From: Lytechinus pictus
Lineage: Eukaryota
Length of the DNA stretch: 64,000 nucleotides
NCBI RefSeq assembly: GCF_037042905.1
Contig: NC_087251.1
Span: 26,910,001-26,974,000 of the forward strand
Reading direction: 5' to 3'
Under the pieces are notes generated by a model. It saw nothing but the letters and a program-made list of their open reading frames with translations. It did not search any database and had not been told where the DNA came from. The position numbers and the translations under genes were made by a program. How positions within the stretch are numbered: position 1 is the first letter of the stretch; every line of letters starts with the position of its first letter. Below are positions 35,179 to 41,497 of the stretch, piece after piece.

Positions 35179-36163
35179 GTAAATATAAAGAGAGTCATAG
35201 CATGCATAACTGTTAGGCATTAAGTTGAAGATTTCAAGACTACACATGATACGAAATGAATTCTTTTTACATGTATGCTTGTTATGATTTGGCTTTTTTC
35301 TCCAGGCCCAGGCCAGACCAATTTACTACCGGGCCGGGCCGCCTCGCCTTGGTTTTTAAACTAATGGGTTTCTGGTGGGAAGCCGCGGCGGCGGAGCTCA
35401 AGATCGTGGTGGTGCATTGTGGAGACTCGCGGGGACATGCCAATATGCCATCTCTAATTTTTAACTCATTATTGACATTGATTTAAAATAAAACGAAGGA
35501 TGTACTTTAAGAATGCAATGCAGCTTTGATTGTCAACTGTGACTGTGAGAATGAGAAATCGGCAAGTAATTATTAACATTTGTAATAATTATTGAATATT
35601 GATAATGATAAATTTGATAATAAATTAATAAGGACTGTGTGGGGACTGTGATGACATTTTTATAATAAAATATCACAGAGTCCGCTAGGCTTACATCAAT
35701 TGCAAGAAATCTTTAGTGTTGGGTTGTATTCTAAGCATAATTTTACTCTTTACTCCATCATCTTGAAATCTGACCATCTGCAACTTGCAAGAATCTAACT
35801 AGATCTATCTGCAAAAATGTTCAACCCTGAAGGAGGCAGATGTAACCTGAAGAAGAAGAATCATCAACTTTATTGTCTAGGTCCTTTTTCAAGAAAACGG
35901 AATAGAAATTGGCATTTGGCATTGATATGCCCATACCAGTATTTTAGGCAAATTGATGTGGTATCTATTTCCTTTTTTTCAATTTTCTACTGGGGGCTAC
36001 ATATAGTCTTCTTCTTCTTCCTATATAAGTACATACCACCTGTGGTGTATTGTCGTACTGTATTGTGGACTTGAATGCTGAGTGCTGAGTATCCACCGTT
36101 GAAGTTGTGGTAAAAAAAAGCCAACATATATATAATATTTACATATTTACAAACAAATGCAGA

Positions 36164-38770
36164 CTAACATAGTCTGACATGTTGCACCTCACTCTTGAAT
36201 ATGTTTGCTGAGGTGCTGTCTACGACGTCCTGAGGTAGGGAATTCCATAACCTGGCAGTGCCAGTGGCAGGAAAGAAGGAATTTTTGTAACATTCCGTAT
36301 TTGCAAATGGAATCATGAGTTTTTGAGAATGACCTCGGGATTTGAAGGATGAGTGTTTCAGTTGTTGCTTGACGTCTACAAGATTATTAATGATGCGATA
36401 CATTAGTAGAGTCTTGGCTTGGGCCCTACGCTCTTGAAGGGTTTGCCACTGTAGTTGTCGAAGCATAGCAGAAATGCTGCTTGTAGTTCGGTAGTTGTGA
36501 CAAACATAGCGTGCGTACCTGTGTTGTATCATTTCCAGATTTCTGATTTTTGACTGTGTGAATGGGTCCCAGATCTCAGATGCATACTCCATTATTGGCC
36601 TCAGGAGCATCTTGTAACAAATGACCTTAGTGTTTCTTGGACAGCTTGTGAGATTTCTTTGCAGAAAACATCTGGTATTATTTGCTTTCTTGGTAATGGA
36701 GTCTACATGGGCGTTCCAACTTAGATTATTGCTAAAGGTTATGCCGAGGTATTTGGCATTACCTTTTTCTTCCAGACCTTGGCCGTGGATGAAGTACCTG
36801 TTGTGTGGAAAAATTTTCTTCCTTGTAATGTGTAAAACCTGGCACTTTCCGGGATGGAATGTCATACCCCAGTCCCTCTCCCATTGCTGCAGAGCATCAA
36901 GATCATGCTGCAGATCTTCGGCGTCTTCTCGTGAACTGATGGGATGGTATAGGGCACAGTCGTCAGCAAAAAGACGAACTGAAGAGCCATTGGTCACATA
37001 CTCTGGCAAGTCATTTATGTACAGGAGAAAGAGCAAAGGACCGACGACACTCCCCTGCGGTACTCCTGAGAGGACAGTTGCTGGTTCTGATGTTGCTCCA
37101 TCAATAACAACTCGTTGACTGCGTTGAGACGAAAAGTCAGCAAGCCAAAGATGTACTTCATCCCTTATACCATAGTATCCAACCTTGTACAGCAGTCTTT
37201 GATGTAGAACTTTGTCAAACGCCTTGGAAAAATCCAACAAGATTACATCAGTTTGTCCTCTCCTGTCGATTGTTGAAGCAAGATCATCAACAAATTTAAC
37301 TAACTGTGTTACACAGGATCTCCTTTTCCGGAAGCCATGTTGGGCATCAGATAGTGTATGATGCAAGTCCAGGTGTTTCATGATGCTGCTACACACAATA
37401 TGTTCTAAGGTTTTACATACTATCGAAGTGAGTGATACAGGTCTGTAGTTCTCTTGCAGCGATCTATCACCCTTCTTAAAGACTGGGACAATTTTTCCTT
37501 TCTTCCAATCTTCAGGAATGGTACCTTGATTAAGGGACGCCTGATAGAAGTGAACAAAGATTGGTGTTAACTCAAGTGCAAGTTCTTTCAAGAGCCGCGC
37601 TGGAATCATGTCAGGTCCAGAAGCTTTGTGTGGGTTCAAATCGTGTAGGAGCTTGTAAACCCCTGCTGGTGACACATCAATGGGTTCCATACTCTTGTAA
37701 GGACTGGGACCTTTCTGTGGTATGCTGGTGATGTCTTCGTTTCCATTGAAAACTGAAGAAAATTGTTTATTGAGAAGACTAGCTTTAGTAGAACTGTCAG
37801 ACACCATTCCGTTGTTTGGAGAAAATGAAGTGGAGACACCATTGTTGTCGCACTTCTTGCTGTTGATGAAACTCCGAAATATTTTTGGATTTGAGGAGCA
37901 TTCTGGGCTGACAATGTTGGTAATGTAGTCACTGTATGCTACTTTACAAGCCTGCTTGCACTCTTTTTGGAGTTGCTTGTATCGCAAAAAATCATGGTTG
38001 TTCTTTGTCATTCTCGCTTTCTTGTAACTCCGTTTCTTCCTTCTTGACAACCTCTTGATATTTGAGTTAATCCAAGGTTGGCTGTATCTGGTCGAAGACA
38101 TTTTGGAGGGTACACACTGATCAAGGATATTTAACAATGATGTCTTGATGTCATACCACATATCAGAAACAGAGTCTGCCGTTGAAGGGTACTTCCCAAG
38201 GAACTCTTGCTGGAAAAGTTTTCCTCGCTTCTTCATTTCATCTAGACTGGCCTTCTTCCAAAGATGAATCTTACGCCTCACCGGTTTTTTTCTTCGGACA
38301 GATATGTCGGACACTGTCAGGACAATGTCATGATCCCCTAAGCCTGGAAGAGGTGAACACTTCGTAACAAAGGATGGACGATTGGTGAGAAAAAGATCAA
38401 GGGTATTGACCCCTCTAGTCTTGAATAATACCATCTGTTGGAGAGTACAATTTTGAACCATATCCAAGAACCTGTTGTTAATTTGAGCAGGATTCCTATT
38501 ACCACAAACTGTCTGTAAAGACCAGTCTATGCCAGGCAGATTAAAGTCCCTTCCAATCCAGATAACAGTTTTCCTCTCTTCTCTACACAGTGATTCGATT
38601 GAGGAACACATTTCATCCAAGTAGTGATGGTCGCTGTTTGGGGGTCGATAAAGAGATCCAATCACAACATCTTTTTTCTGACCAATATGAACCTTAATGA
38701 ACACTTGCTCTACATCCTCGTCTTTCAGGATCTGTTTGTATATTAGATCATTTCTTATTGCTAATAACAC
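36164..38770 (-). CDS. LINE polyprotein C-terminal part: APE endonuclease remainder plus reverse transcriptase
   Basis: YRPP, DFN, LDLFLTN, DH endonuclease motifs; NYRPVSLTS, QHGFR, LDFSKAFD, GVPQGSVVGPLLF, LFADD, KYLG RT motifs. Confidence 0.95.
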   Translation of the reverse strand: MLLAIRNDLIYKQILKDEDVEQVFIKVHIGQKKDVVIGSLYRPPNSDHHYLDEMCSSIESLCREERKTVIWIGRDFNLPGIDWSLQTVCGNRNPAQINNRFLDMVQNCTLQQMVLFKTRGVNTLDLFLTNRPSFVTKCSPLPGLGDHDIVLTVSDISVRRKKPVRRKIHLWKKASLDEMKKRGKLFQQEFLGKYPSTADSVSDMWYDIKTSLLNILDQCVPSKMSSTRYSQPWINSNIKRLSRRKKRSYKKARMTKNNHDFLRYKQLQKECKQACKVAYSDYITNIVSPECSSNPKIFRSFINSKKCDNNGVSTSFSPNNGMVSDSSTKASLLNKQFSSVFNGNEDITSIPQKGPSPYKSMEPIDVSPAGVYKLLHDLNPHKASGPDMIPARLLKELALELTPIFVHFYQASLNQGTIPEDWKKGKIVPVFKKGDRSLQENYRPVSLTSIVCKTLEHIVCSSIMKHLDLHHTLSDAQHGFRKRRSCVTQLVKFVDDLASTIDRRGQTDVILLDFSKAFDKVLHQRLLYKVGYYGIRDEVHLWLADFSSQRSQRVVIDGATSEPATVLSGVPQGSVVGPLLFLLYINDLPEYVTNGSSVRLFADDCALYHPISSREDAEDLQHDLDALQQWERDWGMTFHPGKCQVLHITRKKIFPHNRYFIHGQGLEEKGNAKYLGITFSNNLSWNAHVDSITKKANNTRCFLQRNLTSCPRNTKVICYKMLLRPIMEYASEIWDPFTQSKIRNLEMIQHRYARYVCHNYRTTSSISAMLRQLQWQTLQERRAQAKTLLMYRIINNLVDVKQQLKHSSFKSRGHSQKLMIPFANTECYKNSFFPATGTARLWNSLPQDVVDSTSANIFKSEVQHVRLC

Positions 38771-39660
38771 TCCCCGTAGCCATCTTGTCGGTCTTTCCTG
38801 ATAACATCAAAGAAGGGTGGGAAGAACTCTGAACTAAAAATTGTACTGTTCAGCCTGGTCTCTGTTCCAATAATAACATCAGGTTTCTCACAATCGATGA
38901 GGGCATTCAATTCCTCCTTCTTGTTCTTCAAACTTTGGAAGTTGATGGTAAGAACTTTAATACTCGAGGGATTGGGTATGTTGTTACGATTTCTCCAATG
39001 ATTTAAAGACCGTCTTGGAGAAGAGCTTATCAATGGAGATCCGATGTTGCCTGGTACAATGCTTGATTGTAAATCGCTAGCATTGCTGAGTGATGAATGG
39101 TCAAGACTTGAGAATGAATTTGATAAATCAATACTCCTAGACGATGAGAAAAGACTGGAAGAAAACTGTGGCATACCGCAGTTGGTACATTCCCATGTAG
39201 CATTGCCTCCATTGAGAGCGATGTAGACTGGGGTTGACATGTGCATACAACTGACGTGGAACCAATGATCACAAACATCGCAGGCAACACCTCTCTGAGC
39301 CCATGTCACTCCCTTGTGACAGATTTGGCAAGGATACTTGGGTTGGTAAGGGCCCGGATTTAGCTCCACATCCGATGATAATGATAAAAGTAGTAGAGTG
39401 ATGTAAAGTAAGGAGTGAGATTTCACCTCTTTAAGGACTGATAATGAACGCCTACTTCGTGTAACAACCTTGATCGCAATGCCTTGCTTTACTTGTTGAT
39501 ATTTGTTTATAATGCTCTTTTCAAGACAGTCAACTGCCTTGAAGTTTAGAGACTCATGACAAAATAAAGATTCCCGTCTTTGTGTCTCTACTCATCTAAT
39601 AAAACAACTGAAAAACGTAGTTGAAAGAATTAACAAGTAAAGTGAATTCCTGTTCATCAT
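38761..39660 (-). CDS. LINE polyprotein N-terminal part: leader, 2A peptide, PHD finger, APE start; one in-frame TGA (39592-39594) and a 1-nt frameshift near 38772
   Basis: DVELNPGP at 39349-39372; C4HC3 PHD (CQIC...CDVC..WFHVSC...WECTNC); INFQSL...IIGTET; GYGG junction broken by loss of one G. Confidence 0.85.
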
Positions 39661-40277
39661 GATGATTACTTTCTCTAACAGACAAGTAACTATATTGGTT
39701 AGGGAAAATCATAAAAGATGGTTGTCAACGACTGCTAAAACTTAGAGTTTCCATTTTAACTAACATAGTTATTCTGCATCTTAAAGAATATAATCTTGAG
39801 GACTCCATGATGATGTTTTTTTAAATATTTTGACATATACTTCTTCATCATGGAGTCTTGAACCGCCGGCCATATATGTATAAGAGACACATGTAAACAA
39901 AGATGGATTTTCCTAGGAAATCGATAGTTAGAGGGTGAAATCGATTTGTAGGGTCGAATTTTATTTATCTGTGAACCTTGATGCGCCTAGTGCGTATAAA
40001 GGGATAAAATTTATTTCACTATAAATTGTAAAAATGAGACGTTTCTTACCAGACCGATCTCCTGTAGATCCCTCGATCTGTTTGTCAACAAAGCAAATAC
40101 AATAAAGCCTGACCCTTGAACCGCTTCATTATGATGTACATCTGATTAGCGATGCCGTTTTGAAGAACAATTTATAGATAAAAATTATCATTTCACAAAT
40201 ACTAAACTTTAATTTTAACGTGATTATAAATAATTAGTAGTATTATACTAATTATTTATAATCACGTATTAAATTTT

Positions 40278-41497
40278 AGTGTCAACAATGAAATCTTAAC
40301 CGAAGGTTAAGTTTTTGAAATGGCATCATAACTTAAAAAGTATATTGACTAGTAGTTCATGAAAGTTGGACATAAGTATTACTGAATATCCTTCCTCAGT
40401 TTCAGGTCACATGACCAAGGTCAAAGGTCATTTAGGGTCAATGAACTTAGACCATGTTGGGGAATCAAAATCTTAACCTAAGGTTAAGTTTTTGAAATGT
40501 CATCATAACTTTGAAAGTATATGGACCTAGTTCATGAAACTTAGAAATAAGGGTAATGAAGTATTAGTGAAGATTCTACCGTAGTTTCAGGTCACATGAC
40601 CAAGGTCAAAGGTCATTTAGGGTCAATAAACTTTTACCCTGTTGGGGGTAATTGTTGAAGTGCCATCATAATTTGAAAGTTTATAGATATAGTTAATGAA
40701 ATGTGGACATGGGTAATCAAGTATCATTGCTCATCTTCACAATTCTTAGGTCACTTGATCAAGGTCAAATGTCATTTAAGGTCAAGTCTACCCCAGAAAA
40801 AAGTTGATTTGAATAAATAGAGAAAAATCAAACAAGAATAATGCTGAAAACTTCATCAAAATCGGATGGAAAATAAGAAAGTTATGACATTTTAAAGTGT
40901 CACTTTTTTTTTAACGAAACAGTTCTATGCTCAACTCAGTGATATGCAAATGAGAGAGTCGATGATGTCACTCACTATTTCTTTTTTTTTTTATTGTTTG
41001 AATTATACAATATTTCATTTTTGACGGATTTGACAATTATGTCCATCTTGTTTGAACCACAAACTGTTAAAACAATCAAATTCTACGTGATCAGGGAGGA
41101 ATAAAACTTTTACCGCATGACAATGAGGAGAAAATTCAAATATTTCATATGAATAAAATACAAAAGAAATAGTGAGTGGGTGATGTCATCGGTCCCCTTA
41201 TTTGCATACTGACCCGGATGTGCATATAACTGTTTAGTGAAATTTAGAAAAAGTTTAAAATGTCATAACTTATTTCAGATCCGATTTTGATGAAATTTTC
41301 AGTGTTATTCTTGTTTGATTTTTCTCTTTTTATTCAAATCATCTCTTTGTTGGGGTGGACTTGTCCTTTAAGGGTCAATGAACGTAGTATTATATTATTA
41401 AACGAATGGTGTTTCCTGTGAATAATTATTTTATCAGCACTGCTGCCATATTGAATTGTGTAATGCAGGCGAGACTGCCAGAGGCACTCCATGTGTT
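40278..41497 (-). mobile_element. Partial copy of the tandem-repeat-bearing (Helentron-associated-like) element, interrupted by a Kolobok-like MITE
   Basis: Reverse complement of the 54841 end (GCAGGCGAGACTGCCAGAGGC) and of the CAGGTCACATGACCAAGGTCAAAGGTC core repeats. Confidence 0.75.
40779..41367. mobile_element. Kolobok-like palindromic MITE
   Basis: GGTCAAGTCTACCCC ... GGGGTGGACTTGTCCT flanked by TTAA; host repeat resumes after 41371. Confidence 0.78.

Follow-up and report, generated by a model that had tools for sequence, protein, structure and literature searches.

A signal-peptide-like segment at the start of 2A-bearing LINE leaders in Lytechinus pictus and other animals

Introduction

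2A-like (StopGo) sequences have been described 40–80 amino acids from the N-terminus of the protein of the second open reading frame (ORF2) in Rex1, L2, CR1, Crack and Ingi long interspersed nuclear elements (LINEs), those of the purple sea urchin included (Odon et al., 2013, PMC3708506). In that survey the presence of 2A correlates with the absence of ORF1, a 2A-PHD-APE-RT layout (2A, PHD finger, APE-type endonuclease and reverse transcriptase) is given for STR-24/25/34/35_SP and others, sea-urchin LINE 2As are active in vitro, and 'functions N-terminal of 2A' are suggested to be produced separately. The present analysis concerns an element of this kind from Lytechinus pictus, one copy of which lies on the minus strand of a 64,000-nucleotide stretch (positions 26,910,001–26,974,000 of NC_087251.1, assembly GCF_037042905.1; hereafter the window, in whose coordinates all positions are given). 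Its subject is the leader, the part of the protein ahead of the 2A skip site, which opens with a segment resembling a signal peptide for the endoplasmic reticulum (ER).

The element shares with STR-24/25/34/35_SP, Crack-17_BF and CR1-1/17/26_BF (Odon et al., 2013) a single ORF without ORF1, an N-terminal D(V/I)ExNPGP, a PHD finger between 2A and APE, and a reverse transcriptase domain further on. Like members of that class it joins APE and RT in one ORF and occurs as dispersed, 5'-truncated copies with a common 3' end. It differs in the place of the 2A, which lies 40–80 amino acids from the N-terminus in the published elements and at residue 103 here, 103 being also the median in the 83 foreign leaders listed. 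The sections of Odon et al. (2013) consulted leave the sequence upstream of the roughly 30-residue 2A uncharacterised and do not mention a signal-like segment. Nor is a signal-like N-terminus of LINE leaders described in the 2A literature searched, a scope that excludes subscription journals, Repbase notes and the supplements of Odon et al. (2013). A preliminary description of the window had called the leader hidden. That claim goes too far, as 2A sequences close to the N-terminus of single-ORF LINEs had already been published; the element type and its 2A-PHD-APE-RT layout are known, and the signal-like start of the leader is apparently undescribed.

A cellular parallel is provided by sea-urchin NLR genes, in which 26-residue N-terminal 2A-like sequences act as signal sequences and bring about dual targeting (Roulston et al., 2016, PMC4981915). 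Both systems combine an N-terminal hydrophobic signal with StopGo, and in the NLRs the skip removes the signal to give a cytosolic product. The NLR peptide differs from the LINE leaders in being signal and 2A at once, in a cellular gene, whereas the transposon leaders have two hydrophobic stretches 55–136 residues apart. In the window copy the 2A occupies residues 84–104, and the skip-site Gly follows the separate N-terminal segment at a distance of 82 residues. The NLR layout is resembled only by that of L051, a subfamily whose leader is short (38 residues).

Results and discussion

A signal-like start recurs in 2A-LINE leaders

The leader of the window copy begins with MMNRN, followed by a 15-residue hydrophobic core (LYLLILSTTFFSCFI), a layout of n-region and core like that of an ER signal peptide. 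Kyte-Doolittle hydropathy averaged over 13 residues peaks at 2.18, in the stretch that starts at position 9. To place this segment among other 2A elements of the genome, a degenerate DNA pattern for D[VI]ExNPGP was used; it has 143 matches in the 812-Mb genome against 1 for a reversed control pattern, so the 2A motif is not a product of chance. Among these matches 50 loci (L011–L060) were translated, together with L061, and the LINE-borne ones were sorted by eye; the resulting 18 families have leaders of 69–128 residues, counted from the first in-frame Met. The families leave out loci that are degraded or have no in-frame Met (L011, L023, L029, L032, L033, L037 and L056), leaders shorter than 60 residues (L019, L039, L051, L054 and L055), and exon-like ORFs outside LINEs that end 3 codons past NPGP (L044–L047, L053, L057 and L058). 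A leader was counted as passing when a 13-residue window with a Kyte-Doolittle mean of at least 2.15 starts within its first 12 residues. Thirteen of the 18 families pass, compared with 13 of 266 (4.9%) first-Met ORFs of 60–200 residues from the same DNA stretches. Passing N-termini include MVLKLIIGVLLLLTLIGC, MNVLVLYFLISIICS, MARSVAGKIICLTLLMTILNMIY and MPMEIMLKLFLLALLFIG, and the feature is seen in PHD-containing and PHD-less LINE families alike.

Foreign relatives behave likewise. A search with residues 96–420 of the intact-copy protein gave 251 relatives at E ≤ 1e-10, and the counts that follow cover the 120 matches listed, among them proteins of a brittle star, two amphioxus species, mussels and a sea cucumber. 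In 101 of the 120 the CxxC of a PHD finger lies no more than 25 residues past NPGP, and 83 of those have a Met-started leader of at least 60 residues (median length 103). As the control, the stretches that follow internal Mets in these proteins were scored in the same way (n = 1463). At a threshold of 2.15, 45 of the 83 leaders pass against 0 of 1463 controls; the corresponding figures are 54 and 1 at a threshold of 2.0, and 61 and 12 at 1.7. The N-terminal parts of the 83 leaders form 63 clusters without mutual BLASTP link at 1e-3, 36 of which pass at 2.15. In an independent set from an exhaustive search, NPGP is kept in 21 of 148 proteins, and 10 of the 18 leaders of at least 60 residues pass at 2.0. 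The signal-like peptide, first proposed from the letters of the window alone, is a recurrent and non-random element of 2A-LINE leaders; the signal-like leader start is a real and widespread feature.

The shape and placement of the segment also bear on its nature. Its hydrophobic core has a median length of 12 residues (interquartile range 10–15) in the foreign leaders and of 14 in those of this genome. Signal-peptide cores span about 7–15 residues and are shorter than a membrane span, so the median of 12 points to signal-peptide length rather than to a membrane span. From the end of the hydrophobic window to the skip-site Gly there are 55–136 residues (median 80), or 56–106 within this genome. 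As the ribosome tunnel hides about 30–40 residues, a spacing of at least 55 exceeds its length, and the segment should already be outside the ribosome when the leader comes free. Lengths of the leader concentrate at 81–122 amino acids and are sparse between 41 and 66; the short ones are mostly truncated gene calls, and in others, as in L051, the 2A tract itself stands close to the start of the protein.

Detectable homology is confined to the distal part of the leader. In the exhaustive search of 1.84 billion proteins, full-length matches align from query residue 63–90 on, which leaves the first ~60 leader residues without a detectable relative. A homologue search with residues 1–170 returned only 2 proteins, and Pfam gave no match on the leader. 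An AlphaFold2 model of residues 1–170 from the single sequence has a mean pLDDT (predicted local distance difference test) of 29, too low to interpret.

A different kind of N-terminus is found in the foreign proteins P0005, P0008, P0011, P0012, P0014 and P0252, in which Arg-rich QAARAAG/QAPRGAR repeats replace the hydrophobic stretch. Such leaders are of a second type, with a possible role in RNA binding.

The leader belongs to the single ORF of the element

The leader frame had been proposed to run on the minus strand from an ATG-ATG at 39660 over 103 codons to the skip site, and the translation agrees with this letter for letter. In it the GTG at 39426 encodes Val79, the codon of Gly103 ends at 39352, and Pro104 is encoded by 39351–39349. 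Whether the TGA that interrupts the leader in the window copy is a sense codon elsewhere had been raised as a question. It is CGA (Arg) in all 4 of the other copies covering the site (L002, L003, L004 and L005), so it represents a C-to-T change at a CpG that is private to the window copy. Since the stop is not fixed in other copies, the leader belongs to the ORF, in agreement with the earlier proposal, and the TGA is a decay mutation. L061 has a 1163-codon ORF that runs without interruption from the same ATG-ATG through leader, 2A, PHD, APE and RT. The stretch from the leader through the 2A is open in L002/L061 and L004/L062; it is broken by the TGA in the window copy, by a TAA at codon 93 and a second stop in L003, and by a 4-nt insertion in L005.

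The intact-copy sequence is free of Met between M2 and M139, the latter lying inside the PHD finger, so an AUG start that gives the 2A and the whole PHD finger has to be M1 or M2. Within the window family, the leader of L004 shows 3 nonsynonymous and 2 synonymous changes and one extra Met codon (by eye), too few for a ratio of nonsynonymous to synonymous divergence (dN/dS). Three raw RNA-seq runs labelled with the same species and one contig set, compared with L061:4000-6401, gave zero depth over the 5' untranslated region (5'UTR), leader and PHD finger; a few reads fell on the flank alone, and the comparison is uninformative on expression or start site.

The 2A site and the basic zone ahead of it

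The DVELNPGP of the window copy occupies residues 97–104 (39349–39372) and fits D(V/I)ExNPGP, so the 2A motif is canonical, as described. LLYITLLLLSLSS stands directly before it and contains the tract LLYITLLLLSL. The preliminary description took this hydrophobic segment for a separate membrane anchor. It is instead the tract of the 2A itself, which lies at positions −8 to −16 in related leaders; many 2A sequences contain a short run of residues with long hydrophobic side chains (Roulston et al., 2016). From the assays of related sea-urchin LINE 2As we infer that residues 1–103 would be released at Gly103 and that PHD-APE-RT would follow from Pro104 as a separate protein.

The RSRR upstream of the tract matches R-x-[K/R]-R, and every window-family copy that spans this position has it. 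Its reading as a furin site did not hold up against the related leaders. When the spacers of the 83 leaders were compared with 500 shuffles, R-x-[KR]-R occurred in 1 of 83, against a shuffle mean of 2.0. Dibasic pairs were unenriched (67 against 72.2 expected), and the looser R..R was marginal (21 against 14.7 expected, a count of 21 being reached in 30 of the 500 shuffles). Sister subfamilies have RVQRKG, LVQRKPG, QVQKKSR and TRSRKEA in place of RSRR. The 83 foreign leaders listed have a K/R fraction of 0.2–0.36 at −22 to −36 from the Gly, compared with ~0.07 further upstream, and family-wide a basic zone lies 17–36 residues before the skip site. We take RSRR to be part of this positive stretch ahead of the 2A tract, not a furin site. 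The basic zone presumably belongs to the context of the 2A, where it could place positive charge on the nascent chain inside the tunnel or serve the tract as an n-region.

Two further groups of 2A loci in this genome have features of their own. The PHD-less 2A-LINE loci L011–L016, L024, L033, L041, L055, L059 and L060 carry K-Y-[LF]-x3-I-x-Y-Y-x-N-S-x-A-T-F-Q directly before the 2A. A KR/KRK cluster precedes this shared motif, which is conserved leader sequence outside the 2A core. On contig C4 of G000 at ~23.85–25.94 Mb (L044–L047), together with L053 on C8, at least 11 2A motifs occur in short exon-like frames that read …NVLLLRSGDVExNPGP, 3 codons and a stop, with no LINE domains after them. 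These may be cellular genes that begin, as reported for the sea-urchin NLRs, with a 2A-like signal sequence. L057 and L058 (G000:C9:6.46 and 7.08 Mb) have a Ser/Leu/Phe-rich open frame of 150–170 codons that ends in …QELMLVTAGDVELNPGP, with a stop 3 codons on; this frame is exon-like in look and not that of a LINE.

A possible role at the ER membrane

The best explanation of these observations, in which we place slightly better than even confidence, is that the window holds the leader of a dead copy of a single-ORF LINE, with StopGo acting at Gly103 and a signal-like segment that would dock the translating RNA on the ER. The leader consists, in order, of a signal-like segment, a fast-evolving spacer, a basic zone that contains RSRR, and a 2A with its own tract. 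The N-terminal segment would emerge from the ribosome tunnel well ahead of the skip site and, if recognised like an ER signal, would bring the translating LINE RNA to the ER. StopGo would uncouple the ORF2 protein, leaving it on the cytosolic face while the leader stays in the membrane or lumen. A failed skip would instead send the fusion protein into the ER.

The docking step is proposed from this anatomy and from precedent. A protein downstream of a 2A is kept out of the ER unless the skip fails, in which case a fusion with an N-terminal signal is translocated (de Felipe, 2010). Ty1 RNA is translated at the ER on ribosomes bound by signal recognition particle (SRP) (Doh et al., 2014, PMC3945221). 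There, as is proposed here, the RNA of a retrotransposon sits on SRP-bound ribosomes and a nascent N-terminal protein enters the ER. Ty1 differs in being a yeast long terminal repeat element without 2A, whose Gag is translocated and then returned to the cytosol; the likeness is one of mechanism, not of sequence, and ER docking of the LINE is only proposed. A link of LINEs to membranes has also been drawn for the L2 element ZfL2-1, whose ORF1 esterase binds lipids and for which membrane targeting has been proposed to serve retrotransposition (Schneider et al., 2013, PMC3905857). ZfL2-1 falls within the same broad group of LINEs with PHD and esterase types of ORF1. It differs by encoding ORF1 separately, as a protein with a folded domain of the SGNH esterase type, whereas the present element has no ORF1, no esterase and a short leader without a Pfam match. 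L1, for its part, is reported to require ESCRT (endosomal sorting complexes required for transport).

Selection on the leader was estimated upstream of its last 25 residues and compared with that downstream. The pairs L016/L060 and L024/L059, in which synonymous sites have diverged, gave leader dN/dS values of 0.20 and 0.27, against 0.11 and 0.12 downstream. Several results weigh against a signal that docks the RNA on the ER. Two other pairs show a less constrained leader, with a dN/dS of 0.77 against 0.15 downstream for L012/L050 and with 6.5 nonsynonymous to 0.5 synonymous changes against a downstream dN/dS of 0.23 for L043/L052; over the first ~16 codons, five pairs pooled gave 0.72 (40.5 nonsynonymous to 15.5 synonymous). 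Reading frame, length and hydrophobicity are preserved rather than the residues themselves, as expected of signal peptides, yet this is weaker evidence than a low dN/dS. Kyte-Doolittle windows are a crude stand-in for a trained signal-peptide or membrane predictor. Even so measured, 5 of the 18 families of this genome fail (the L018 group, L042, L035, L048 and L028); L028 passes only when counted from its second Met, and L048 scores 1.78 yet has the appearance of a classical signal (by eye). Among the 83 foreign leaders, between 22 and 38 fall short too, depending on the threshold, several of them having a hydrophobic stretch slightly deeper, behind a later Met (by eye). One group of close relatives has the Arg-rich 'QAARAAG' leaders, and the L051 leader is merely 38 residues long. 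Use of the ATG-ATG is presumed, and 23 upstream ATGs precede it in the full-length 5'UTR. N-x-S/T glycosylation sequons are unenriched in the 83 leaders (53 against 62.9 expected). In the window family the core runs directly into RRVETQ with no clear small-x-small site (by eye), and the segment could there be an uncleaved anchor or no signal; plausible signal peptidase sites are present in several other families, for example TRISSG in L048 and LIGC in L015 (by eye, unscored).

The earlier reading of the leader as a payload, a virus-like accessory in the form of a small ER-targeted protein that furin cuts at RSRR and that is either secreted or held in place by the hydrophobic segment, agrees with the signal-like N-terminus, with the fit of RSRR to R-x-R-R in the window family, and with a leader ORF that is kept open and constrained in length across families. 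It is nevertheless quite unlikely. R-x-[KR]-R and dibasic pairs both fall below their expected counts, sister subfamilies differ at RSRR, the second hydrophobic tract belongs to the 2A, and no homologue upstream of about residue 63 was found among the 1.84 billion proteins. The spacer, which would be the mature product, cannot be aligned even between sister subfamilies (proportion of nonsynonymous differences, pN, 0.6). Ahead of the basic zone, no alignment of the window leader with L017 or L028, the subfamilies closest to it, is possible. The leader might instead adjust dosage or act as a fail-safe: the signal would act only where StopGo fails, the fusion being lost in the ER, or SRP pausing and 2A would together lower ORF2 output and leave a small, clean cytosolic fraction. 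A failed 2A behind an N-terminal signal does lead to translocation of the fusion (de Felipe, 2010), down-regulation of ORF2 by 2A has been put forward for LINEs that lack ORF1 (Luke, 2013), and in a 2026 preprint proteins became less abundant with most of the 2A-like peptides from retrotransposons. The distance of at least 55 residues between signal and skip site is, however, explained no better in this way than by docking, and we regard the regulatory role as unlikely.

A role of the hydrophobic segment away from the ER is also improbable, whether as a degron that clears the leader, as a chaperone- or ribosome-associated handle, or as a patch for self-association or lipid droplets. Residue identity that is nearly free, the window family without a clear cleavage region and the unenriched sequons would all suit it. 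Against it stands the classical signal layout, with a position right after the start, a short basic or polar n-region and a core of 10–15 residues, and in many relatives small residues lie behind the core (by eye, unscored). That the upstream frame is open by chance, with a hydrophobic start derived from AT/T-rich DNA and a true product that begins later, is very hard to credit. The region is indeed AT-rich. This reading is contradicted by the pass rates of families and leaders set against those of control ORFs and internal Mets, by the low leader dN/dS of two pairs and by the Met-free stretch from M2 to the middle of the PHD finger; a 2A that is not translated cannot act.

If the docking explanation is right, the leader start may show how such elements reach cell membranes. 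RNP (ribonucleoprotein) assembly and nuclear access of LINEs without ORF1 would gain a concrete and cheaply testable model. The only function so far proposed, to our knowledge, for the N-terminal 2A of such LINEs is the lowering of ORF2 output, and a signal-like start gives this 2A a testable purpose. ER docking would also link Ty1 translation at the ER, the lipid-binding ORF1 esterases of L2-type elements and the 2A signal sequences of NLRs, and would point to a natural family of 'signal-2A' cassettes for biotechnology. A wider reading, on the whole doubtful, is that single-ORF LINEs of echinoderms, amphioxus, molluscs and other animals share an ancient modular device made up of signal peptide, spacer, basic zone and 2A. 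SRP would dock the RNA on the ER or nuclear envelope and StopGo would free cytosolic ORF2 protein beside the membrane-tethered RNA, in place of the membrane- or RNP-localising role of the lost ORF1; the NLR 2A-like signal sequences could then be a shortened, domesticated form. Should the signal reading fail, what remains is a decayed copy, in itself ordinary, of a LINE type already known.

The window copy and its 5' untranslated region

The window copy is a dead, ordinary member of a known LINE type, namely a young, low-copy, single-ORF 2A-PHD-APE-RT element (Table 1). The two ends of the copy agree when L061 and L062 are compared with the window by BLAST. By BLAST and alignment it is 98.9% identical to L061, an intact copy on another contig. 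The two differ at 43 positions, of which 36 are substitutions, 7 of them CpG-type; there are also a 1-nt deletion beside 38775, where the ORF is split, and an in-frame 6-nt insertion at 36261–36266. The leader region contains just two of the differences, one being the T at 39594. Pfam finds PHD, then APE, then RT after the leader, both in the window frames and in P0002, the intact-copy protein, with PF03372/PF14529 and PF00078 marking APE and RT within one ORF. The leader is present in five copies. They share the 3' end at 36007 with its (GAA)n tail and vary at the 5' end, which lies at −1295 in 4 loci, at 39792 in the window copy and at 39701 in L005. No target-site duplication was seen by eye at the ends of the window copy.

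Table 1. Features of the LINE copy, in window coordinates.
Feature	Position	Strand	Basis or remark
LINE copy leader-2A-PHD-APE-RT, mutated, 5'-truncated	36007..39792	-	BLAST with L061, L062
Residual 5'UTR, 132 nt	39661..39792	-	window homology ends at 39792
Leader codons 1-103, Met1 to Gly103 of NPG	39352..39660	-	
Signal-peptide-like hydrophobic segment, residues 6-21 (SLYLLILSTTFFSCFI)	39598..39645	-	MMNRN before, RR after
TGA, codon 23; CGA in other copies	39592..39594	-	alignment, 4/4 other copies
RSRR, residues 68-71, -35 to -32 from skip-site Gly, within family-wide basic zone	39448..39459	-	
2A / StopGo, residues 84-104: hydrophobic tract LLYITLLLLSLSS + DVELNPG/P	39349..39411	-	homology to distant families begins here
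PHD finger, residues 111-161	39178..39330	-	Pfam PF00628, E 2.7e-6
APE-type endonuclease, approximate, across frameshift	38306..38946	-	Pfam PF03372 + PF14529
1-nt deletion relative to intact copy	38775..38776	-	frames split: 38761-39591 and 36164-38806
Reverse transcriptase	36734..37474	-	Pfam PF00078, E 8e-34
Stop codon (36164-36166) and 3'UTR, (GAA)n tail 36007-36020	36007..36166	-	

Full-length copies have a sharp 5' end ~1295 nt upstream of the ATG in four loci (L066/L003; L061; L064 plus L062; and L065, of a sister subfamily). Their 5'UTR of 1295 nt has 33% GC and 23 ATGs. It contains no sign of an ORF1: the longest ATG-started ORF has 63 codons, the longest stop-to-stop frame 74 amino acids, and five of its frames (57–74 amino acids) gave nothing at the Pfam cut-off, the lone match being VtrC at E 0.01 and 16.7 bits against a cut-off of 27. 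The absence of a separate ORF1, asserted in the preliminary description, is borne out by these short frames.

Some variation is seen around the 5'UTR. At L064/L062 (G000:C2:63323161-63330889) an insertion of ~6.8 kb, presumably another mobile element, splits it. In L065 (G000:C31:489500-497500), a member of the sister subfamily with DIEVNPGP and a 38-residue leader, the ~1.1-kb 5'UTR is 89% identical to that of L066 and the leader differs, a pattern that suggests modular exchange of 5'UTR or leader between subfamilies. Directly upstream of the window copy, positions 40281–41497 hold a block of internal direct and inverted repeats with 72–86% identity; this block also adjoins loci L006 and L009 and is another repeat family.

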